Counted from the stretch's first letter, positions 262 through 35,143 are shown. The stretch is DNA of 64,000 nucleotides from Mycobacteriales bacterium (GCA_030697205.1 JAUYQP010000059.1:13127-77126), one strand, 5' to 3'. Made by a program: numbers and translations. The notes: a model not told the origin generated them from the letters alone.

Positions 262-1062
262 GTGTACGAGGTGTCCGACCCGACGAAGGTCCTGACGGAG
301 CGCCGCGGCAGCACGCTCGTCGTCACGATCAACCGCCCCGCGGCGCGGAACGCTGTCGACGCCGACGTGCACGCGCTCGTCGGCGCGGCGGTCGAGCAGG
401 CCGAGCACGACCCGGAGATCAGGGCACTCGTCCTCACCGGCGCAGGCGACCAGGCCTTCTCCGCCGGCGCCGACCTCAAGGCGATCTCGCGCGGCGAGCC
501 CGTCCTCGCCCCGGGCACCGAGCACTGGTCCTTCGCCGGCTTCGTCGACCACTTCACGTCCAAGCCGACGATCGCCGCCGTCAACGGCAACGCCCTCGGC
601 GGCGGCACCGAGCTGGCCCTCGCCTGCGACCTGGTGGTCGCCGTCGAGACCGCGAGCTTCGGGCTCCCGGAGGTACGCCGGGGGCTGATCGCGGGCGCGG
701 GCGGCGTCTTCCGACTGGCCGAGCAGCTGCCGCCGAAGGTCGCGATGCAGCTCATCCTCACCGGCGAGCCGATGCCCGCGGCCGAGGCGCTGCGCTGGGG
801 CCTGGTCAACCAGGTGGTCGCCCCCGGTCAGGCCCTCGACGCGGCGCTCGCCCTCGCCGACCTCATCGGCAAGGGCGCGCCGCTCGCGGTGCAGGCCAGC
901 AAGCGGATCGCCTACGGCGCGGTCGACGGCAAGCGCGCGGGCGAGGCCGCCAAGTGGCAGCAGAACTCCGAGGAGTTCCTCGTCCTGCTCGGCAGCCACG
1001 ACGCGATGGAGGGGCCGACGGCCTTCGCCGAGAAGCGCGAGCCGGTCTGGCAGGCCCGCTGA
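262..1062 (+). CDS. enoyl-CoA hydratase/isomerase (crotonase family)
   Basis: Frame of ORF 25..1062. Crotonase motifs LVVTINRPAARNAV, LTGAGDQAFSAGADLK and NGNALGGGTELALACD are present. Start set at GTG 262, 6 nt after GGAGG (251-255); the upstream part of the ORF is low-complexity and overlaps npdG. Confidence 0.9.
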   Translation: MYEVSDPTKVLTERRGSTLVVTINRPAARNAVDADVHALVGAAVEQAEHDPEIRALVLTGAGDQAFSAGADLKAISRGEPVLAPGTEHWSFAGFVDHFTSKPTIAAVNGNALGGGTELALACDLVVAVETASFGLPEVRRGLIAGAGGVFRLAEQLPPKVAMQLILTGEPMPAAEALRWGLVNQVVAPGQALDAALALADLIGKGAPLAVQASKRIAYGAVDGKRAGEAAKWQQNSEEFLVLLGSHDAMEGPTAFAEKREPVWQAR

Positions 1063-1190
1063 CCTCGGCGTACGCCTGAGTGGCGCGCGTCACGCCACCC
1101 CACCGGTGACGGCGCGGCACGCGTGTGGCGCAATGGGGTTCCACGCGAACCGTCGTTCACTGGGTCCGTCCGAGATCAGGAGGTCGTCCG

Positions 1191-2330
1191 ATGAGGGACG
1201 CCGTCATCGTCGAAGCAGTCCGCACGCCCGTCGGGAAGCGCGGTGGGGGCCTGTCCGGCGTCCACTCCGCCGACATCTCCGCCCTCGTCCTGCAGGCGAT
1301 CGCCGAGCGCTCCGGCATCGACCCGGGTCTCGTCGACGACGTCATCTGGGGCGTCGTCATGCAGATCGGTGAGCAGACCTTCGACGTCGCGCGCACCGCC
1401 GTGCTGTCCGCCGGCTGGCCCGAGCACGTCCCCGGCACGACCGTCGACCGCCAGTGCGGCTCGTCGCAGCAGGCCGTGCACTTCGCGGCCGCGGGCGTCA
1501 TCAGCGGTCAGTACGACCTCGCCGTCGCGGGTGGCGTCGAGATGATGAGCCGCACCCCGATGGGCTCGTCGTTCACCGCCTCCCCCCTCGGCGCGATGTA
1601 CGCCGAGCGCTACGGCGAGGGCTTCCCCAACCAGGGCCTCGGCGCGGAGCAGATCGCCGACACGTGGGGCTTCAGCCGCACCGAGCTCGACGAGTACGGC
1701 CTGCAGTCGCACGAGCGGGCCGCCGCCGCGCAGGAGGCCGGCGCCTTCGACGCGCAGATCGTGCCCATCCAGACCGAGAACGGCCTGATCAGCAAGGACG
1801 AGGGCATCCGTCCCGGCGGCACCCTTGAGAAGCTCGCCACCCTCAAGACGCCCTTCAAGGAGGACGGCAAGATCACGGCGGCGAACTCCTCGCAGATCTC
1901 CGACGGGTCCGCGGCGCTGCTCATCACGACGAGCGAGTTCGCGGCGGCCAACGGCCTCACCCCGATCGCGCGCATCCACACCGCCGTCGTCACCGGCGCG
2001 GCCCCGATGCCGATGCTCACCGCCCCGATCCCCGCGACCCAGAAGGCGCTCGCGAAGTCCGGCCTGTCGCTGTCGGACATCGGCGCCTTCGAGGTCAACG
2101 AGGCCTTCGCGTCGGTGCCCATGGCGTGGCTCAAGGACATCGGCGCCGACGACAAGCTCACCAACGCACTCGGTGGCGCCATCGCCCTCGGTCACCCGCT
2201 GGGTGGCTCGGGCGCGCGCATCATGACCACGCTGGTCCACCACATGCGCGACAACGGCATCCGCTACGGCTTGCAGACGATGTGCGAGGGCGGCGGCCAG
2301 GCCAACGCCACCATCCTCGAGCTGCTCTAG
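1191..2330 (+). CDS. acetyl-CoA C-acetyltransferase (thiolase)
   Basis: MRDAVIVEAVRTPVGKRGG N-terminus. Thiolase contexts VDRQCGSSQQA, GHPLGGSGARI and CEGGGQANA are present. AGGAGG at 1178-1183 precedes ATG 1191. Confidence 0.93.
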   Translation: MRDAVIVEAVRTPVGKRGGGLSGVHSADISALVLQAIAERSGIDPGLVDDVIWGVVMQIGEQTFDVARTAVLSAGWPEHVPGTTVDRQCGSSQQAVHFAAAGVISGQYDLAVAGGVEMMSRTPMGSSFTASPLGAMYAERYGEGFPNQGLGAEQIADTWGFSRTELDEYGLQSHERAAAAQEAGAFDAQIVPIQTENGLISKDEGIRPGGTLEKLATLKTPFKEDGKITAANSSQISDGSAALLITTSEFAAANGLTPIARIHTAVVTGAAPMPMLTAPIPATQKALAKSGLSLSDIGAFEVNEAFASVPMAWLKDIGADDKLTNALGGAIALGHPLGGSGARIMTTLVHHMRDNGIRYGLQTMCEGGGQANATILELL

Positions 2331-2339
2331 CTCCCGGGG

Positions 2340-2369
2340 CCGGTCCGCACCGCGTCAGGTGCGGGCCGG
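2340..2369. terminator. GC-rich hairpin between convergent thiolase and C2H2 genes (candidate bidirectional terminator)
   Basis: ccggtccgcacc / ggtgcgggccgg form a 12-bp stem (one G-U pair) with a 6-nt loop, gcgtca. The loop contains the stop codon of the minus-strand gene. There is no U tract, which is common in actinobacteria. Confidence 0.4.
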
Positions 2370-2528
2370 CACCCCGGCGTCGGTCCGGACCTTCGGCGCC
2401 TTGTAGGCGGTGATGTGCTCCTGCACGACAACCAGGTCGTGCGGGGCGTGCTCCTCACGGGCGTGCTCGTCGAGCTCGCTGGTCCAGCTGAAGCGCAGTC
2501 CGCAGAGCGGGCAGTGGTAGGTCGTCAT
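2355..2528 (-). CDS. 57-aa protein with a single Krueppel-type C2H2 zinc finger
   Basis: MTTYHCPLCGLRFSWTSELDEHAREEH fits Y-x-C-x2-C-x3-F-x5-L-x2-H-x4-H exactly. ATG 2528 is preceded by GAGGAGG. The gene lies 48 nt downstream of hutG on the same strand. Confidence 0.6.
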   Translation of the reverse strand: MTTYHCPLCGLRFSWTSELDEHAREEHAPHDLVVVQEHITAYKAPKVRTDAGVPART

Positions 2529-2576
2529 CGTGGGACCTCCTCGTCCCCCGAGTGTGCGCCTCACGTCGCTGCAGGT

Positions 2577-3458
2577 CTAGCGGCTGGCCCACCCTGCCGC
2601 GACGGACAGCAGGCACATCGCGGCGAGCTGCACCGTGATGCCCGACATGTCGGCCGCCGCGTCCACCTCGGTGACGTCGACGGCGCGCACCGACCGGTGC
2701 TTTCCCGCTGCCACCGCCGCCTCGAGCAGCTCGTGCGGCAGCAGCCCGCCCGGCCGCGCCCCGGGGCAGCCGGGCACGAAGGCGCGGTCGACGACGTCGA
2801 CGTCGAGGTCGACGTAGACGACGTCGCAGGTCAACGCCAGGCGGTCGAGCTCGCGCGTGACGACCTCGCCCACCCGCCCGCGGCAGTCGGCGAGGCCCAC
2901 CGTGGTGATGCCCTCGGCGCGGCAGAAGCCGGCGTACTCCCTGCTGTTGGTGAGCTCGCCGATGCCGACCTGGACGACGTGGCGGCCGGGCAGCCCGGCC
3001 TCGAGCAGCCCGCGCACCGGGGTGCCGTTGGTCGGGCCGGCATGCCAGCCGCGCACGTCGTGGTGGGCGTCGAGGGTGAGCAGCCCGGCGCGCGACAGGT
3101 CCGGGGCGAGCGCCTGCAGCGCCGGCCAGGTGACGAGGTTGTCGCCCCCGAGAAGGACGAGCAGGTCGTACGACGGGAGGGCGGCGACCCCCGCGCGGGC
3201 CGCCTCGACCGCGGCCGTCCCCGTGAGGTCCGCGACGTCGAGGTCGCCGTGGTCGGCGAGCGCGGGCAGGTCGACGTCGAGCCCCGCGTGCCAGGTGGGG
3301 AAGCGGTGCAGCGCGGCCCGCACCGCGACCGGGGTGAGGTCGGCGCGCGAGGGCGAGATCGAGCTGCGGTGCAGGGGCACGCCGACGACGCCGACCCGCT
3401 GCCCGGCAGGCGGTCCGAGCAGGGTGGAGGCGCGCGGCCACAGCGGGTCGTCGGTCAC
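2577..3458 (-). CDS. hutG: formimidoylglutamase (arginase/ureohydrolase family)
   Basis: Ureohydrolase motifs [16 protein letters not shown] and VDLDVDVVD are present. The GTG start overlaps the hutI stop (GTGA). The call also rests on hut operon context. Confidence 0.8.
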
Positions 3459-4639: not shown

Positions 4640-4750
4640 GCCGGCAGTCTGCCCCCCACCTCCGGACTGGGTCGGCTTTTCTGAAGCATGTCGGGACGGC
4701 GGGCTCGAGCGGCGGGCCTGTGGGCGTCATCGACTGGGTAGGGAGCCGTC

Positions 4751-5080
4751 GTGGACCCGCTGCTCACTGCGCTCGACGACGCCCGCGCGCAGGTCGTGGC
4801 GCTCACGGCACAGCGGGCCGAGGTGGTGGCCGCCTCCGAGGGGTCCAACGCCGACGACGAGCACGACCCGGAAGGCGCGACGATCGCGTTCGAGCGCGAG
4901 CAGCTGACCGCGTTGCTCGACCAGGCGTGCGCAACCGTCGCGGCGCTCGAAGGCGCCGCCCTCCGGCGCGCAGCCGGTGACTACGGCCGCTGCGAGCGCT
5001 GCGGCGGGCCGATCGGTGACGAGCGGCTCGCCGCCCGGCCGCACGCGACCCACTGCATCGGGTGCGCTGGTCTCAGGTGA
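4751..5080 (+). CDS. DksA/TraR-family C4 zinc-finger protein
   Basis: C-terminal CERCGGPIGDERLAARPHATHCIGC is a CxxC-x17-CxxC motif, preceded by a coiled-coil-like N-terminal region. GTG start. The gene is antisense-oriented between hutU and hutI. Confidence 0.75.
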   Translation: MDPLLTALDDARAQVVALTAQRAEVVAASEGSNADDEHDPEGATIAFEREQLTALLDQACATVAALEGAALRRAAGDYGRCERCGGPIGDERLAARPHATHCIGCAGLR

Positions 5081-5083
5081 GCC

Positions 5084-6697
5084 TCACAGCATGGGCATGT
5101 CGATGCCGCGCTCGCGGGCGACGTCGCGGGCGATCTCGTAGCCGGCGTCGGCATGACGGACCACCCCGGTGCCGGGGTCGTTGGTGAGCACCCGCTCGAC
5201 GCGCCGCGCCCCGTCGGCGGTCCCGTCGGCGACGACCTGCGCGCCCGTGTGGATCGACTTGCCCATCCCGACGCCGCCGCCGTGGTGGACCGCGACCCAG
5301 GCCGCGCCGGACGCGACGTTGAGCAGGGCGTTGAGCACCGGCCAGTCGGCGATCGCATCGGACCCGTCGAGCATCGCCTCGGTCTCGCGGTAGGGACTCG
5401 CCACCGAGCCGCTGTCGAGGTGGTCGCGACCGATGACGACCGGCGCGCTGATCCGACCGCTCGCGACCAGGTCGTTGAGCACCTTGCCGGCAGCGGCCCG
5501 CTCGCCGTAGCCGAGCCAGCAGATCCGCGCCGGCAGTCCCTGGAAGGCGACCCGCTCCTGCGCCATCGGGATCCAGCGCTGCACGAAGGGGTTGTCGGGG
5601 AACTCATTGAGCAGAGCCTCGTCGGCGACCGCGATGTCCGCCGGGTCGCCCGACAGCGCCACGAACCGGAAGGGACCGGTGCCGCTGCAGAACAACGGCC
5701 GGATGTACGCCGGGACGAACCCCGGGTAGTCGAACGCGTCGGTGAGCCCGGCCGCGAGCGCCTCCCCACGCAGGTTGTTGCCGTAGTCGAAGACCTCGCT
5801 GCCGGCCCTCGCGAAGCCGACCATCGCGCGGCAGTGCTCGACCATCGAGGCGCGGGCGCGGTCGACGTACTCAGACGGCTTCGAGGCCCGCAGCTCTGCG
5901 GCCTCCTCCAGCGACAGCCTCGCCGGGACGTAGCCGTTGAGGGGGTCGTGGGCGCTGGTCTGGTCGGTGACGACGTCGAAGTGCTCGCCCGCGGCGAGCA
6001 GCGCGGGCAGCGCCTCGGCGGCGTTGGCGACGACGCCGATCGACACCGCCTCTCCCGCCGCCGCGGCCTGGCGGGCCCGGGCGACCCCGGCCGTGAGCGA
6101 GTCGGCGACCTCGTCGAGGTAGCGGGTCTCCAGCCGTCGCCGGACGCGCGCCGGGTCGACGTCGAGGCACAGCGAGACGCCGCCGTTGAGGGAGACCGCC
6201 AGCGGCTGCGCGCCACCCATGCCACCGAGGCCCGCGGTGAGCACGACCTTGCCGCGCAGGGTCCCGTCGTACCTCTGCTCGGCGAGCGCCGCGAAGGTCT
6301 GGAAGGTGCCCTGGACGATGCCCTGCGTGCCGATGTAGATCCAGGAGCCAGCGGTCATCTGGCCGTACATCGTGAGGCCCATCGCCTCCAGTGACCAGAA
6401 GTCCTCCCAAGTCGACCACGACGGGACGAGCAGCGAGTTGGCGAGCAGCACCCGGGGGGCATGCTCGAAGGTGCGGAAGACCGCGACCGGCTTGCCGCTC
6501 TGCACCATCAGCGTCTCGTCGTCCTTGAGCCGCTTCAGCGTGGCTTCGATGGCGGCGAGCGACGCGTGGTCGCGGGCGGCCTTGCCGTTGCCGCCGTAGA
6601 CGACGAGGTTGGCGGGGTCCTCGGCGACGTCGGGGTGGAGGTTGTTGCGCAGGCACCGCAGCGCGGCCTCCTGCAACCAGCCCTGGCACTCCATCAC
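5084..6697 (-). CDS. hutU: urocanate hydratase
   Basis: Matches urocanase along its length ([41 protein letters not shown]). The GTG start overlaps the hutH stop (GTGA). Confidence 0.95.
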
Positions 6698-30276: not shown

Positions 30277-30834
30277 GTGCGGGGAGTGAGCACAGTCAGC
30301 CCGGTGAGTCCCCGGCGCGAGCTGCTCCTGAGGGCTGCGGCGGCGCTGTTTGCGCACCGCGGCTACCACGCCGTGGGCATCGACGACATCGGCGCCGCAG
30401 CGGGCATCACCGGACCGGGGGTCTACCGGCACTTCGCCTCGAAGCAGGCCCTCCTCGAGACACTCGTCGACCGCACCATGGACCGGATGCTCGACAGCGC
30501 ACATGGGGCTGATCGGATCTCGGACCTGGTCGACCTGCACGTCGAGCTCGTCGTCGGGGAGCGCGCCCTGGTCGGCGTGTGGGTTCGAGAGCAAGGTGCC
30601 CTCGGCGACCAGGTCAGGCGATCGCTACGGAGGCGGATGCGTCTCTACGAGGGGTTGTGGGGAGCCGCGCTGGCTCCGGAGCGCCCTGAGCTGACGTCAG
30701 CGGAGCTCTCCCTGACAGTGGGAGCCGCTCTGGCGATGCTCAACACCACCTCGCTCATCGAGTCGTCCCTGCCACCCGAGCAGCGCGCTGCTGTCCTGCG
30801 CCGCATCACCCTGGCGGCGCTGCTCCCGGCCTGA
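30277..30834 (+). CDS. TetR-family transcriptional regulator
   Basis: HTH region LFAHRGYHAVGIDDIGAAAGITGPGVYRHFASKQALL. Start is GTG 30277 or 30286. Confidence 0.88.
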   Translation: MRGVSTVSPVSPRRELLLRAAAALFAHRGYHAVGIDDIGAAAGITGPGVYRHFASKQALLETLVDRTMDRMLDSAHGADRISDLVDLHVELVVGERALVGVWVREQGALGDQVRRSLRRRMRLYEGLWGAALAPERPELTSAELSLTVGAALAMLNTTSLIESSLPPEQRAAVLRRITLAALLPA

Positions 30835-32635
30835 TCCGCAGCACGTCGGCGTAGCTGGCGTACAGCTGCTCCACGGGCAGAGCCCGATCGAGCAGGTAGC
30901 CCTGGCCCAGCTCGCAGCCGAGCTCGTGCAAGCGGTCCTGCTGCGCAGCAGTCTCGATGCCCTCCCCGACAGTGGACAGCCCCAGGCTCGTCGCAACGCC
31001 CAGGACAGCCGCCACGATCGCCTCGTCGACCGGGTCCTGCCCGAGCCCGGCCACGAAGCTCTGGTCGACCTTGACCGTCGAGGCGGGGAACAGCTTGAGG
31101 TGGTTCAGCGAGCTGAAACCGGTCCCGAAGTCGTCGATGGCCAGTCGCAGGCCCATGTCGTGGAGCTCCCGCAGGACGCGCGCCACGGAGTCGTCGACGA
31201 GCAGCGCGGACTCGGTCACCTCGAGCTCGAGCTGGTCCGGGCGGATGCCCGAGGAGCTCAAGGTCTCGGCCACCTGCCTGACGAAGCCGGGGACCGAGAG
31301 CTGTCGAGGGCTGATGTTGACCGCGAACCGCGGCGGTGTCCTACCGGGCCAGTTCGCCAGCGTGGAGCAGACCTGCTCCAGGACCCACCAGCCCAGACCA
31401 GCGACCAGGCCGCTCTCCTCGACGCCGTCGATGAACTGGGCAGCCGTGAGCAGGCCGCGGGTGGGGTGCGCCCATCGCACCAACGCCTCTACGGCGACCA
31501 GCTCCCCCGTCGCCAGCGAGACCTCTGGTTGGTAGTGGACCTCGAACTCGTGCTCCACCAGAGCGGTCCGCAACTCGGTGTGCAGCAGGAGCTGCTGCGG
31601 AGGGGCGGTGCGCAGCGAGTCGTTGAAGACCTCGTACCTCGCCTTGCCATGCCGCTTCGCCGCGTAGAGGGCGAGGTCGGCGTTCGCGACGGCCTCCTCC
31701 GTGGAGGTCGACCCCTCCGACGCGCACACGGCGACGCCCAGGCTGACGGAAGGGACATAGACCTTGGTCCCGAGGATGAGCGGCGACGAGACGCGTTCGA
31801 GCAGCCGCGCGGCCAGCTCGCCGGCCTTGACGGGGTCGTGCAGCCCGGGGCAGACGATCGCGAACTCATCGCCCCCGAAGCGGGAGACGGTGTCGGTCGG
31901 GCGGACCACCTCATGCATCCGCGCAGCCACCACCCGGAGCAACTGGTCCCCCGCGTCGTGCCCCAGCGTGTCGTTGACCAGCTTGAGGTTGTCCACATCG
32001 AGGAACATCGTGGTGACAGCCTCCGGTCGGAGGAGGGCGGCCTCGAGCCGCTCGAGCAGCAGCCTGCGGTTGGCCAAGCCGGTGAGGGCGTCGTGCTGCG
32101 CCAGGTGCACGAGCTGCAGCTCGCTGGCCTTGCGCTCGATGGCGTAGCGCACTGAGCGCGCCAGCAGCTGGGGCTCAAGTTCGCGCTTCGGAAGGTAGTC
32201 CTGGGCACCGTGCCGCAGCGCCTCCGAGCTCAGCACGTCGTCGTCACGCCGGGTCAGGACGACGACCGGGATCTCCGGCCCAGCTGCGACGACGAGGCGC
32301 AGACCGTCGAGCCCATCGGCGTCGAGCACCCCCAGGTCCAGCAGGACGCAATCGACGTGGTGCCGCGCCAAGTAGGCCTGCGCCTCCTTGATCCGCTCGA
32401 CCCGCTCCACCAGCCAGTCGACCCCCGCCTCACGGAGCAGCTCGACGACCAGGCGTCCATCGGCAGCGCTGTCCTCCACCATCAGCAGGCTGAGCCTGGT
32501 CCGCACAGCGCCGTGACGGCGGTCCTGCAACAGCTCCGGGCTACGCGTCGGAGAGGGCACGTGCAGACCTGTGTCACCGCCGCGGACGGCGACGAGTACT
32601 GGTCGACGGGGGGTGCCCTGATCGGGGCAGGTCAT
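30806..32635 (-). CDS. response-regulator receiver - GGDEF - EAL protein (c-di-GMP turnover)
   Basis: The REC domain has the acceptor context CVLLDLG. The GGDEF motif is intact (RFGGDEFAIV) and so is the EAL motif (VAVEALVRW, DDFGTG). ATG 32635 overlaps the kinase stop (ATGA). The 3' end overlaps the TetR 3' end by 29 nt. Confidence 0.9.
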   Translation of the reverse strand: MTCPDQGTPRRPVLVAVRGGDTGLHVPSPTRSPELLQDRRHGAVRTRLSLLMVEDSAADGRLVVELLREAGVDWLVERVERIKEAQAYLARHHVDCVLLDLGVLDADGLDGLRLVVAAGPEIPVVVLTRRDDDVLSSEALRHGAQDYLPKRELEPQLLARSVRYAIERKASELQLVHLAQHDALTGLANRRLLLERLEAALLRPEAVTTMFLDVDNLKLVNDTLGHDAGDQLLRVVAARMHEVVRPTDTVSRFGGDEFAIVCPGLHDPVKAGELAARLLERVSSPLILGTKVYVPSVSLGVAVCASEGSTSTEEAVANADLALYAAKRHGKARYEVFNDSLRTAPPQQLLLHTELRTALVEHEFEVHYQPEVSLATGELVAVEALVRWAHPTRGLLTAAQFIDGVEESGLVAGLGWWVLEQVCSTLANWPGRTPPRFAVNISPRQLSVPGFVRQVAETLSSSGIRPDQLELEVTESALLVDDSVARVLRELHDMGLRLAIDDFGTGFSSLNHLKLFPASTVKVDQSFVAGLGQDPVDEAIVAAVLGVATSLGLSTVGEGIETAAQQDRLHELGCELGQGYLLDRALPVEQLYASYADVLRIRPGAAPPG

Positions 32636-33780
32636 GCGGGGAGCTCCACTGAGAAGGTGCTCCCACTCGGGCCGGAGTCCACCCAGATGCGGCCGCCCTG
32701 TCGCTCGACGAGCCGCCTGCAGATCGCGAGACCGATACCGCTGCCCGGGTAGCGCTCTCGGCTGTGCAACCTCTTGAACGGCTGGAAGATCCGGTCGAAG
32801 TGCTCGGGCTCGATGCCCACTCCGTTGTCGCTGACCCGGAAGATCACTGTCCCGGGGCTGCACTCAGCCTCGATCCGCACGTGGGGTACGACGCCGGGCT
32901 GTACGAACTTCAGCGCGTTGACCGCGAGGTTGTGGAGCACCTGGGTGAGCACGAGGCGGTTGGCCACGAGCTCCCGCGGGAGCTCCCCCGTCGACACGAG
33001 GGCGCCCGATGTCGCCGTGCTGCCGAGGCCAGCGATGACGTCAGCAACGAGGCGCCGGCAGTCGAGCAGCTCCTGAGGTAGCTCACCGCGCCCCGCCCTG
33101 GCGAAGTCCAGCAGGTCGTCGAGCAACTGCTGCATGCGTTGGGCCGAGTCGATGATGAACTCGCAGAACTCGGCCTCCTCGTTGGTCCTGGTGCGCCGAG
33201 CGAGCCGCTCCGCGAAGCCCTTGATGACGTTGACGGGCTCAGACAGGTCGTGCGAGACCAGGTAGAGCAGCTCCTCCAGGTCCTGCTCCACCGCAGCGAG
33301 CCGGTCAGCCTCCCTCGACGGCGGGGGCACGGCTCGAGACGGCGCGGGGGGCGCGACGGGGGCCGGCATCCTCGCGGGGAAGATCTCGCGCAGCGCCTGG
33401 ATCATGGCCTCCGGCGCCAGACCCTTCTGGAGGTAGGCGTCGGCCCCAGCCTCGAGGACCTGCGACTCCATGGCTGCTCGGTCGAAGCCGGAGAGGATCA
33501 CCACGCGCACATCGGGCAGTGCCTCGCGGAGCAGGGGCATCGCCTCGAGCCCGTCCATCACCGGCATGGCGAGGTCGAGCAGGACCAGATCCGGTACCAG
33601 CTGACGGGCCAGCTCGAGCGCCGCCAGACCGTCGCCCGCCTCGCCCACGACCACGAAGCCGGTGCCCTCGAGCGCGAGGCGCATGAGCATCCTGAGTGTG
33701 GGGGTGTCGTCGACGAGCAGGGTGGTGACCCCGTCCTCTGCGGAGCGCGGAGGGAGCGAGTCCACGACCTGAGCCGTCAT
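32632..33780 (-). CDS. hybrid REC - HisKA - HATPase_c histidine kinase (cytoplasmic)
   Basis: N-terminal REC domain (LLVDD, LVLLDLAMP, YLQKG). H-box LVSHDLSEP, N-box HNLAVNALKF, and G-boxes DNGVGI and GSGIGLAI are present. There are no TM segments. ATG 33780 overlaps the upstream stop (ATGA). Confidence 0.9.
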   Translation of the reverse strand: MTAQVVDSLPPRSAEDGVTTLLVDDTPTLRMLMRLALEGTGFVVVGEAGDGLAALELARQLVPDLVLLDLAMPVMDGLEAMPLLREALPDVRVVILSGFDRAAMESQVLEAGADAYLQKGLAPEAMIQALREIFPARMPAPVAPPAPSRAVPPPSREADRLAAVEQDLEELLYLVSHDLSEPVNVIKGFAERLARRTRTNEEAEFCEFIIDSAQRMQQLLDDLLDFARAGRGELPQELLDCRRLVADVIAGLGSTATSGALVSTGELPRELVANRLVLTQVLHNLAVNALKFVQPGVVPHVRIEAECSPGTVIFRVSDNGVGIEPEHFDRIFQPFKRLHSRERYPGSGIGLAICRRLVERQGGRIWVDSGPSGSTFSVELPA

Positions 33781-34364
33781 GGCTTCCTCAACAGGGCGGG
33801 GCGCGACCTGCGCAGCTCCCCGGCCTCGAAGTCCGGTCGCTCTGTCACCTCGCCGAGCAGCTCGGTGATCAGCCCCCGCGCCGAAGCGAGGGTGGACTCG
33901 AGGGCCTCCCGGGTCACGGCCGTCTGGTCGAGCTCGAGGGCCAGCTTGGCCGTCGCCAGTCCCTGCACGATCCCGTCGTTGATCTCGAGCGCCTGCCGCT
34001 GCCGCTCCCGAAGGTCCTCGAACAGCTTCGCCCCGCTCATGAGCGCGCCGTAACTCCGGCGCAGCGTCCAGTAGTAGATACCGACAGCGGCGGTGAACAG
34101 GTCCCAGGCCACGGTCGCGGGGTCGAAGGCCTGGCGCATGCCGAGCCCGCTCGACGTCGCGAGCCCGAGCGCTGGGAGCAGCGCGTGCACGGCGTGCCCA
34201 CCGTGCACGACGGCACAAGTGAAGAAGATCAGGGCGGTCGCCGTGCCGAGCCGGTTGGCCTTGACCTGCTTCTCCCGGATCAACGGGACGATGATGGCCG
34301 CGACGATGGCGAAGTACGCGACCATCGTCACGATGTTGGCCGCGGCACCGATGCGCCAGCCCAT
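33777..34364 (-). CDS. 3-TM membrane protein with ETR1-like C-x3-H helix and a kinase-dead HisKA_3 (DHp-only) domain
   Basis: ATG 34364 follows AGGGGAG. The TM region has AYFAI (helix 1) and FFTCAVVHGGHAVH (helix 2). The cytoplasmic ERQRQALEINDGIVQGL matches the HisKA_3 H-box with Asn in place of His. The protein ends without an ATPase domain. Confidence 0.75.
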   Translation of the reverse strand: MGWRIGAAANIVTMVAYFAIVAAIIVPLIREKQVKANRLGTATALIFFTCAVVHGGHAVHALLPALGLATSSGLGMRQAFDPATVAWDLFTAAVGIYYWTLRRSYGALMSGAKLFEDLRERQRQALEINDGIVQGLATAKLALELDQTAVTREALESTLASARGLITELLGEVTERPDFEAGELRRSRPALLRKP

Positions 34365-34534
34365 AGCGGACTCCCCTCATCGGCCGGTCGGCGGACAGCA
34401 TGACCCCCCTTGCGGCCGATCGCAGCACCCGTGGCGAAAGACCATCACAACTGGTCATGCGCCCTTGGCCCGCTCGCGCCACCCTTGCGGCGAGGAGGGG
34501 ATCCCCGACGGCTACGCACGCCACGCACCTGCTG

Positions 34535-35143
34535 ATGTTCGCGCTGCCGCTCGTCGTCTTCGCGGGCCTGCTCTGGCTGGAGTGGCGGCGCACGAGCGAC
34601 CGCGTGCGACCCGCGAGGTCCACGCCTGCCCTCATCATGGCGACCAGCAGCGCGGGTGCCGGTGGCGTGCACGCCGTCGTTGTGGGGCCGCACGCCGACC
34701 ACGCCTGGCTGCTCGGTGTCTTCTTCCTCAGCCTCGCCGTGGCACAGCTCGTGCTCGCCCTGGCGCTCCTGGGCCCTGTGCGACCGCGGGTCGTGCTGGG
34801 CTGCGTCGGGCTGAACGCCGGTGTCGTCGCGCTGTGGGTGTGGACCCGCGCCGTCGGTGTGCCCTGGGGGGTCGGCGGTGACCACCGAGAGGCCATCGGT
34901 GCTCTCGACCTCGTCGCCACGGGCCTCGAGGCGGGCTGCGTGGTTGCAGGGGTCCTGTTGCTCTACAGAGCGACCGGGGGCTCCCCCTCCCTGGAGGACG
35001 TGCCCGCGTCGAAGTGGGAGACGTCGACGGTGAGGAACAGCCCACCACCTCGGAAGGTCAGCTCCCCACCAGGACCGCGGCCCTCGCAGGAGACGAACAG
35101 CTTGCGACCCTCGAAGCTGTCCACCTTCGCGACCAGGTCGTAG
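34535..35143 (+). CDS. polytopic membrane protein (4-5 TM, His-containing loops)
   Basis: High GC3, and no competing frame between 34365 and 34962. TM helices include MFALPLVVFAGLLWL, AWLLGVFFLSLAVAQLVLALALL and VVLGCVGLNAGVVALWVW. The start is uncertain (ATG 34535 or 34457). The last 181 nt run antisense through the thioesterase paralog. Confidence 0.5.
   Translation: MFALPLVVFAGLLWLEWRRTSDRVRPARSTPALIMATSSAGAGGVHAVVVGPHADHAWLLGVFFLSLAVAQLVLALALLGPVRPRVVLGCVGLNAGVVALWVWTRAVGVPWGVGGDHREAIGALDLVATGLEAGCVVAGVLLLYRATGGSPSLEDVPASKWETSTVRNSPPPRKVSSPPGPRPSQETNSLRPSKLSTFATRS

Follow-up and report, generated by a model that had tools for sequence, protein, structure and literature searches.

A conserved family of membrane sensors with a mostly His-less HisKA_3-like hairpin and a neighboring receiver domain: a possible signal-gated receiver phosphatase

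A compact membrane sensor gene is located in a 64,000-nucleotide stretch of DNA from a Mycobacteriales bacterium (GCA_030697205.1 JAUYQP010000059.1:13127-77126), the whole of which is referred to here as the window, and its product is a candidate phosphatase for the receiver domain encoded immediately downstream. The gene (33777..34364) lies on the minus strand, as do all features of the sensor and of the two genes that follow it. Its ATG and a Shine-Dalgarno-like GAGGGGAG (34371..34378), which is situated 7-14 nt upstream of that ATG, were both read directly from the sequence. The encoded 195-amino-acid (aa) membrane protein is composed of a sensor of three transmembrane (TM) helices and a His-less, HisKA_3-like hairpin, and it has no domain for catalysis and ATP binding (CA domain).

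The N-terminal three-helix TM sensor domain spans residues 1-105 (34050..34364), resembles ETR1_N and carries a Cys50-x3-His54 motif. The hairpin starts with helix α1 (residues 108-144; 33933..34043), which continues the third TM helix (TM3), bears a degenerate H-box and was delineated by an AlphaFold2 (AF2) model, column entropy and hhalign, and it is completed by helix α2 (residues 148-170; 33855..33923), which is helical in the AF2 model and aligns with the second HisKA_3 helix in hhalign. The AF2 model, whose predicted local distance difference test (pLDDT) score averages 80, contains helices at 2-30, 38-66, 70-79, 82-144 and 148-170. TM3 is modeled as passing straight into α1 as one long helix of residues 82-144, followed by a turn and the helix 148-170, with a pLDDT of 63-89 for this hairpin in the monomer. 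As modeled, such continuity is that of a DesK-like dimerization and histidine phosphotransfer (DHp) hairpin joined directly to the last membrane helix. Searching the whole model against the PDB with Foldseek returned noise only, as expected for an all-helical membrane model. About ten residues past the hairpin, the family alignment displays a conserved tail motif, G-E/D-L-R-R (residues 182-186; 33807..33821), of which G182 and R186 are invariant and L184 is nearly so. The low pLDDT of this region indicates that it is probably disordered, and the motif could serve as a short linear docking motif.

A preliminary description of this DNA had assigned residues 116-175 (33840-34019) to a kinase-dead HisKA_3 domain with an H-box matching that of the HisKA_3 kinases position by position. 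The string in question, ERQRQALEINDGIVQGLATAKLAL, was found in the translated open reading frame (ORF), where it starts at E120 and reads ERQRQALEIN129D130GIVQ134GL. The phospho-accepting His of the H-box is absent from this protein, its position (33978..33980) being taken by Asn129, as described, with an AAC codon at 33980-33978. The DxxxQ motif, which is the phosphatase motif of HisKA_3 kinases and CheZ, is present directly after it as Asp130-x3-Gln134 (33963..33977), encoded by GAC at codon 130 and CAG at codon 134 (33965-33963). A stop about 60 residues farther on and the lack of HATPase_c had likewise been reported; 66 residues remain after Asn129, and scanning all 195 aa gave no Pfam match to HATPase_c. 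No ATPase domain has been cut off, since the ATG of the next gene (33780) overlaps the sensor stop codon (ATGA).

The homology of the hairpin was assessed by profile methods. Pfam HisKA_3 (PF07730) matched 18 of 25 family members, every one of them below the threshold, with a best E-value of 0.0017. When the family C-terminal alignment (68 sequences) was compared by hhalign with 28 genuine HisKA_3 domains taken from the same genome and eight relatives, a probability of 93.1% (P 3.2e-7, score 37.2) was obtained, in a register that places Asn129 on the phospho-His (the His of LHD), Asp130 on the next Asp and Gln134 at His+5. The controls stayed at or below 1.1%, including a HisKA (PF00512) alignment (0.4%) and the reversed query (0.2%), and the top score among 20 column shuffles was 13.3 versus the real 37.2. 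In the reverse direction, a hidden Markov model of the family C-terminus was searched against all 26,860 ORFs with a length of 80 aa or more in the six frames of the same genome; it recovered the sensor itself at 3.6e-31, and the next four hits (E 0.016-0.026) were four of the genome's HisKA_3 kinase ORFs. Judged by these profile comparisons, the relationship of the hairpin to the HisKA_3 subfamily is real and specific, though Pfam's own membership rule is not satisfied. The PF07730 assignment suggested in the preliminary description therefore holds by the profile-profile and reverse genome searches and not by the Pfam threshold.

Homologues with a length of about 195 aa number more than 760, with identities of 56-93% among the matches listed. 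An exhaustive search gave 743 cluster representatives, and 219 matches were obtained in GTDB species genomes, spanning Actinomycetota, Chloroflexota and Dormibacterota. Loci were compared for the closest 80 of these 219, so that 81 sequences (the window and 80 loci) underlie the counts for close relatives. They occur in metagenome-assembled genomes (MAGs) of Mycobacteriales and Frankiales, in Jatrophihabitans, Nocardioides, Marmoricola, Aeromicrobium and Acidimicrobiia, and also in Chloroflexota and Dormibacterota; among the cultured carriers are Nocardioides psychrotolerans CGMCC 1.11156, N. marmorisolisilvae KIS18-7 and Marmoricola sp. RAF53. A truncation or a sequencing error, which had been raised beforehand as a possible refutation, was ruled out by the uniform length of about 195 aa in the more than 760 homologues together with the conserved overlapping start of the downstream gene, and those members that do carry His also lack an ATPase domain.

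Among the 81 sequences, Asp130 and Gln134 are invariant (81/81 each), which bears out the earlier statement that the D-x-x-x-Q is intact, and they are accompanied by Gly135 (79/81) and Leu136 (76/81). Residue 129 is Asn in 79 and His in two, so the question of whether Asn is fixed can be answered with nearly for close relatives. It is not so for the wider family, clustered at 50% identity, whose 65 short representatives (about 190-200 aa) have Asn in 44, His in 19 and Gln in two, all without an ATPase domain, and in which Asp130 and Gln134 stay conserved. A maximum-likelihood tree separates a His-rich from an Asn-rich group and needs at least about seven changes at residue 129, of which two to three are forced by the well-supported branches alone. 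The stop codon of one His form, P0128 (ALEIHDNVVQGL), is overlapped by the same REC-HisKA-HATPase gene. As residue 129 drifts, the His form keeps the same neighbor and the Asp/Gln pair is fixed, the phospho-His would be dispensable and the Asp/Gln pair would not, which strengthens the view that the family functions without a phospho-His. An unusual architecture was observed in the cluster representative P0176 (426 aa), where two sensor-plus-hairpin units are arranged in tandem, the first with LEVHDGIVQDL (a His form) and the second with RRMQDTTVQHL.

The conservation is distributed unevenly over the hairpin, column entropy being very low along α1, which is much more conserved than α2. A heptad analysis of α1 puts Asn129 at the core position a, D130 at b and Q134 at f, a pattern that fits a bundle core, and it reveals an exposed, conserved and partly hydrophobic stripe formed by Asp130, Gln134, V/A137, V138 and M/L141. 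An acidic and an amide residue, D130 and Q134 of the DxxxQ motif, are accordingly predicted on the receiver-exposed face of the helix. The stripe corresponds to DesK D189, Q193, S196 and L200. In the phosphatase complex of DesK and DesR, Asp189, Gln193, Ser196 and Leu200 touch the regulator, while His188 is buried in the bundle core (PMC5231405). The Asp/Gln pair of NarX and DesK positions the water that hydrolyses the acyl-phosphate of the receiver; NarX does not need the His for its phosphatase activity, the catalytic water is placed by the Gln, and CheZ, too, uses DxxxQ as its catalytic motif (PMC3510030, PMC5231405).

Directly 3' of the sensor gene is located a gene for a soluble REC-HisKA-HATPase_c kinase of 382 aa (32632..33780; Pfam Response_reg 3e-26, HisKA 9e-14, HATPase_c 4e-26), whose N-terminal NarL-type receiver (residues 18-135; 33376..33729) is the proposed target of the hairpin, and the arrangement of sensor and REC-HisKA-HATPase_c gene recurs at other family loci. 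A complete NarL-type receiver is encoded directly 3' of the sensor on the same strand in 79 of the 80 loci, and the 80th ends at a contig edge. The output domain attached to that receiver varies: it is HisKA-HATPase in Actinomycetota, which account for most loci, often with an extra domain in between, and PAS-GGDEF-EAL without a kinase in Chloroflexota and Dormibacterota. The kinase's own DHp domain is an unlikely target, as the receiver is the only common denominator across the loci. A conserved heterodimerization with the HisKA DHp domain of the kinase was also considered, and it was ruled out by the Chloroflexota and Dormibacterota loci that have no downstream kinase. At three such loci from Dormibacterota and Chloroflexota MAGs (L053, L060 and L063, about 4640-6680), the REC-PAS-GGDEF-EAL gene comes right after the sensor gene, so that the pathway has one step fewer than its Actinomycetota counterpart.

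By their conserved residues, all 79 receivers are bona fide receivers rather than pseudo-receivers: the acidic pair DD24/25 is found in 77 of them (the two others have gaps), and the phospho-Asp D69, S97 at the Ser/Thr position, F99 and the Lys K119 are found in all 79. F99 is an invariant Phe at S+2, the position of DesR Phe82, which inserts into the DHp domain in the phosphatase state. The best NCBIfam models for the kinase receiver are NarL (91.6 bits), UvrY, NarP and MctR, and those for the receiver of the GGDEF-EAL protein are CreB, OmpR and PhoP, of the OmpR class. NarL-type receivers are the cognate class of HisKA_3 kinases, and the OmpR class pairs with HisKA kinases. The presence of two receiver classes in one operon suggests two orthogonal pairings, one between the hairpin and the NarL-type receiver, the other between the OmpR-type receiver and the HisKA domain of the kinase, which would be insulated from each other within the three-gene module. 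The preliminary description had named the receivers of both downstream proteins as possible targets; the NarL-type receiver of the REC-kinase is the likely partner, more so than the OmpR-type receiver on the GGDEF-EAL protein.

Natural fusions of sensor, hairpin and receiver were found in three cluster representatives, P0155, P0193 and P0229 (333-342 aa; loci L039 257-1255, L122 4001-5026 and L123 347-1372), and by the Rosetta-stone argument they speak for an interaction of hairpin and receiver. Their receivers bear the same LLDxxMPVMDG...GF signature and have a Cys, not Ser/Thr, at the S97 position. Cys50, His54 and Asn129 are gone, with V, L or A instead, and D-x3-Q-G-L is retained; these proteins may represent a derived, ligand-independent branch. 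An AF2 model of P0155 (pLDDT 85, predicted template modeling score 0.56) is confident per domain, and Foldseek classifies only its receiver, by matches to LiaR, CheB, CheY, NarL, VraR and DesR.

The third gene of the operon (30806..32635) encodes REC(OmpR-type)-GGDEF-EAL (Pfam EAL 6e-68, GGDEF 5e-39, Response_reg 4e-15), starts either at the ATG at 32635, again with an ATGA overlap, or at an internal Met at 32482, and is confined to the closest relatives. By eye, the GGDEF motif (RFGGDEF) and the EAL motif (EALVRW) seem intact, and so do the kinase's H, N, G1 and G2 boxes. A scan of the operon for promoters and terminators found none, a result that carries no information at this G+C content. 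Upstream of the sensor gene, a divergent ORF on the plus strand (34400-35143) encodes a polytopic membrane protein with several His residues; it is absent beside the homologues in L003, L005 and L040 and hence is probably unrelated to the module.

With regard to the input domain, Pfam ETR1_N (PF25487) matches residues 7-70 of the sensor with an E-value of 1.5e-4 and 22.4 bits versus a cut-off of 27, short of the gathering score; all 25 family members examined are matched (best E 1.6e-6), and a longer relative, P0222, reaches 28.2 bits. The register of the Pfam match is gapless and places N10, Y17, C50 and H54 on ETR1 Asp25, Tyr32, Cys65 and His69, so that equivalents exist for the copper-ligand positions Cys65 and His69 and for the Asp25 position, which is occupied by Asn. 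All four residues are conserved in 76-81 of the 81 sequences, with C50 in 80, H54 in 81 and N10 in 76 (Asp in three). Asn is a natural variant of ETR1 Asp25 that lowers the affinity for ethylene (PMC10266040). The Pfam match stops short of TM3, and an equivalent of Lys91 was not found. A comparison of the N-terminal domain by hhalign with an approximate ETR1 sequence scored 20.1 versus up to 21.7 for shuffles, which is not significant. Wang et al. in 2006 are said to have identified seven residues needed for ethylene binding. Elsewhere, the ETR1_N-like domain is used as a modular input of HisKA kinases, PAS-GGDEF-EAL proteins and GGDEF-EAL proteins. Given its conserved Cys-x3-His, the TM domain is probably a metal-based sensor.

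A paralogue of this domain with the Cys-x3-His kept (IFLSCAVHHGHHALH) is encoded in the same genome as a fusion to GGDEF (L002, G000:C4:13224-16403, minus strand, about 778..1700 and 1850..3043). On the same strand, it directly follows a gene for a NarK-like nitrate/nitrite transporter of the major facilitator superfamily, and this neighbor may hint at a ligand related to N-oxides or nitric oxide (NO).

We propose, with moderate confidence, that the sensor is a signal-gated, DHp-only phosphatase of the NarL-type receiver. The homology of the hairpin to HisKA_3, the lack of both His and CA domain, the invariant Asp130 and Gln134, the constant receiver neighbor and the fusions are findings of the analysis, whereas the catalysis of dephosphorylation, the gating by the TM domain, the source of the receiver's phosphate and the wiring to the GGDEF-EAL enzyme are inferred. 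The cytoplasmic part would be a sole DHp hairpin derived from a histidine kinase of the HisKA_3 subfamily, which cannot act as a kinase because the ATP-binding domain has been lost and the phosphorylatable His has been replaced, by Asn129 in this clade. The TM domain with its Cys-x3-His would sense the signal and rotate or piston TM3 and hence α1, whereby the Asp/Gln face of the hairpin would be exposed or hidden. This face would dock onto the N-terminal, NarL-type receiver of the soluble kinase and dephosphorylate it. The phosphorylation state of the receiver would in turn set the activity of the attached HisKA kinase, which would phosphorylate the OmpR-type receiver on the GGDEF-EAL enzyme and thereby control cyclic di-GMP (c-di-GMP). 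At the kinase-less loci, the state of the receiver would set the cyclase/phosphodiesterase directly.

Several points weigh against the phosphatase proposal. The Pfam HisKA_3 match of the sensor itself (E 0.009; residues 120-173 on model positions 1-56 of 68) reaches 17 bits versus a cut-off of 24, and a search of the PDB sequences with the family profile gave no kinase match. The Arg that is the equivalent of DesR Arg84, the partner of the DHp Asp, is present in 12 of the 79 receivers, most of which have Ala there. In the phosphatase complex of DesK, the regulator is touched by the CA domain as well, and a HisKA_3 hairpin alone may not be a competent phosphatase. No kinase that might phosphorylate the receiver is encoded in the operon at the Chloroflexota loci. 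The covariation evidence for a contact of hairpin and receiver is weak: over 79 pairs, the top inter-protein link joins receiver residue 28, at the N-terminus of its helix α1, to residue 138 of the hairpin (His+9, part of the exposed stripe), a pair that falls at the canonical kinase-regulator interface, but the states follow clades and phylogeny is a confounder.

Some of these points lead to a different account of the same hairpin. It may be a non-catalytic docking or allosteric partner, which would bind the NarL-type receiver in a signal-dependent and perhaps phosphorylation-dependent manner, recruit the kinase or cyclase to the membrane and switch it without hydrolysis, following the logic of DivL and RocA. 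The constant receiver neighbor and the fusions support this account in the same way as they support the phosphatase, the hydrophobic exposed stripe on α1 suggests a binding face, no CA domain is at hand to aid catalysis, and the Arg that would partner the DHp Asp is mostly missing from the receivers; pseudo-histidine kinases that act by binding are known (RocA, PMC7028121; DivL, PMC4211667). The invariance of exactly the Asp and Gln (81/81) that form the catalytic pair of NarX, DesK and CheZ is, however, hard to explain by binding alone while the His position drifts, and the receiver retains every residue of the phosphorylation chemistry. We therefore treat a purely docking role as a tentative alternative. 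A phosphotransfer intermediate like Spo0B or ChpT, in which a hairpin His would relay phosphate between receivers and the Asn forms would be inactive or regulatory, is suggested by the roughly 30% of distant clusters that lack a CA domain and whose His is embedded in a perfect E-I-H-D-x3-Q, and by the two receivers of the window's operon. Asn cannot be phosphorylated, and it is what this protein and its nearest relatives carry (79/81), so that such a relay is excluded for the Asn forms; moreover, many loci have one receiver only. Because the His and Asn forms are alike in length and downstream gene and have been exchanged repeatedly on the tree, their common function cannot need a phospho-His, and the relay is very improbable.

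It might also be argued that the likeness to the H-box is convergent, the tail being a coiled-coil stalk of a protein whose real function lies in the membrane, for example in metal handling, beside a receiver gene by coincidence. The sub-threshold Pfam score and the failure to match solved kinases by sequence or by whole-model fold search are in line with this idea, which is nevertheless hardly credible given that the profile-profile and reciprocal genome searches single out HisKA_3, that the receiver neighbor is kept at 79 of 80 loci in three phyla and that fusions exist, and that kinases and cyclases elsewhere use the same TM domain as a modular input. A bolder extension of the phosphatase proposal, speculative and rather unlikely as a whole, is that a widespread soil receptor family of Actinomycetota, Chloroflexota and Dormibacterota may detect a small gas or an unsaturated ligand (ethylene, another alkene, an N-oxide or NO) by means of a membrane Cu(I) site (Asn/Asp, Cys, His), and as a phosphatase-only two-component sensor may control c-di-GMP with no kinase step of its own.

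Pseudo-histidine kinases and auxiliary phosphatases such as CheZ are already known, and so is DxxxQ as a phosphatase motif. With the HisKA_3 kinases DesK, NarX/NarQ and LiaS/VraS, the sensor shares the H-box context E-R-x-R-x-A-x-x-[IL]-[H]-D-x3-Q-x-L with its DxxxQ, a hairpin that, as modeled, continues the last TM helix, as in DesK, and a NarL-type receiver as partner. It differs from them by the lack of HATPase_c, by Asn in place of His (His, Gln or another residue elsewhere in the family), by its ETR1_N-like input, and by the position of its receiver, which is part of a second kinase or a GGDEF-EAL enzyme and not of a DNA-binding regulator. Among auxiliary aspartyl-phosphate phosphatases, CheZ is comparable, and CheX/CheC and Spo0E are more loosely so, in that a small all-helical hairpin dimer is proposed to offer an Asp and an amide (DxxxQ being the CheZ motif) to the phospho-Asp of a receiver, with no kinase activity expected. 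In contrast with this group, the sensor hairpin has a HisKA_3 ancestry and is membrane-anchored, fused to a sensor and putatively signal-gated; the likeness is one of motif, and no homology is claimed. DivL, RocA and PsmA are likewise derived from histidine kinases, have no phosphorylatable His or kinase activity and still address two-component partners, whereas a (pseudo-)CA domain or a more extensive cytoplasmic portion is left in them, and the sensor has the hairpin only, with the phosphatase residues strictly kept. The input domain resembles the ethylene-binding domain of ETR1, SynEtr1 and AzoEtr1 in its three TM helices, its N10/Y17/C50/H54 register and its modular use, and it departs from that group in its sub-threshold score (22.4 vs 27 bits), in the unmatched TM3 and in the missing Lys91 equivalent. 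No published description was found of a conserved HisKA_3 family that has been cut down to input and hairpin, in which the His has been lost repeatedly, the Asp/Gln pair is fixed and a receiver is always adjacent.

Two-component sensors are normally bifunctional and combine kinase and phosphatase activities. If the phosphatase proposal is true, the family would represent a natural separation of function, in which a sensor has kept the phosphatase/docking hairpin alone, and the HisKA_3 DHp domain without CA domain or His would suffice as a signaling output. The repeated exchange of His and Asn beside a fixed Asp/Gln pair can be regarded as an evolutionary experiment that backs the conclusions drawn from NarX and DesK mutants. 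A minimal, membrane-anchored and signal-gated receiver phosphatase would be of use in synthetic circuits, and the cultured carriers N. psychrotolerans, N. marmorisolisilvae and Marmoricola sp. RAF53 make the family testable. For the organisms themselves, it would mean that a metal sensor resembling the ethylene receptor is tied to c-di-GMP in abundant, mostly uncultured soil lineages.

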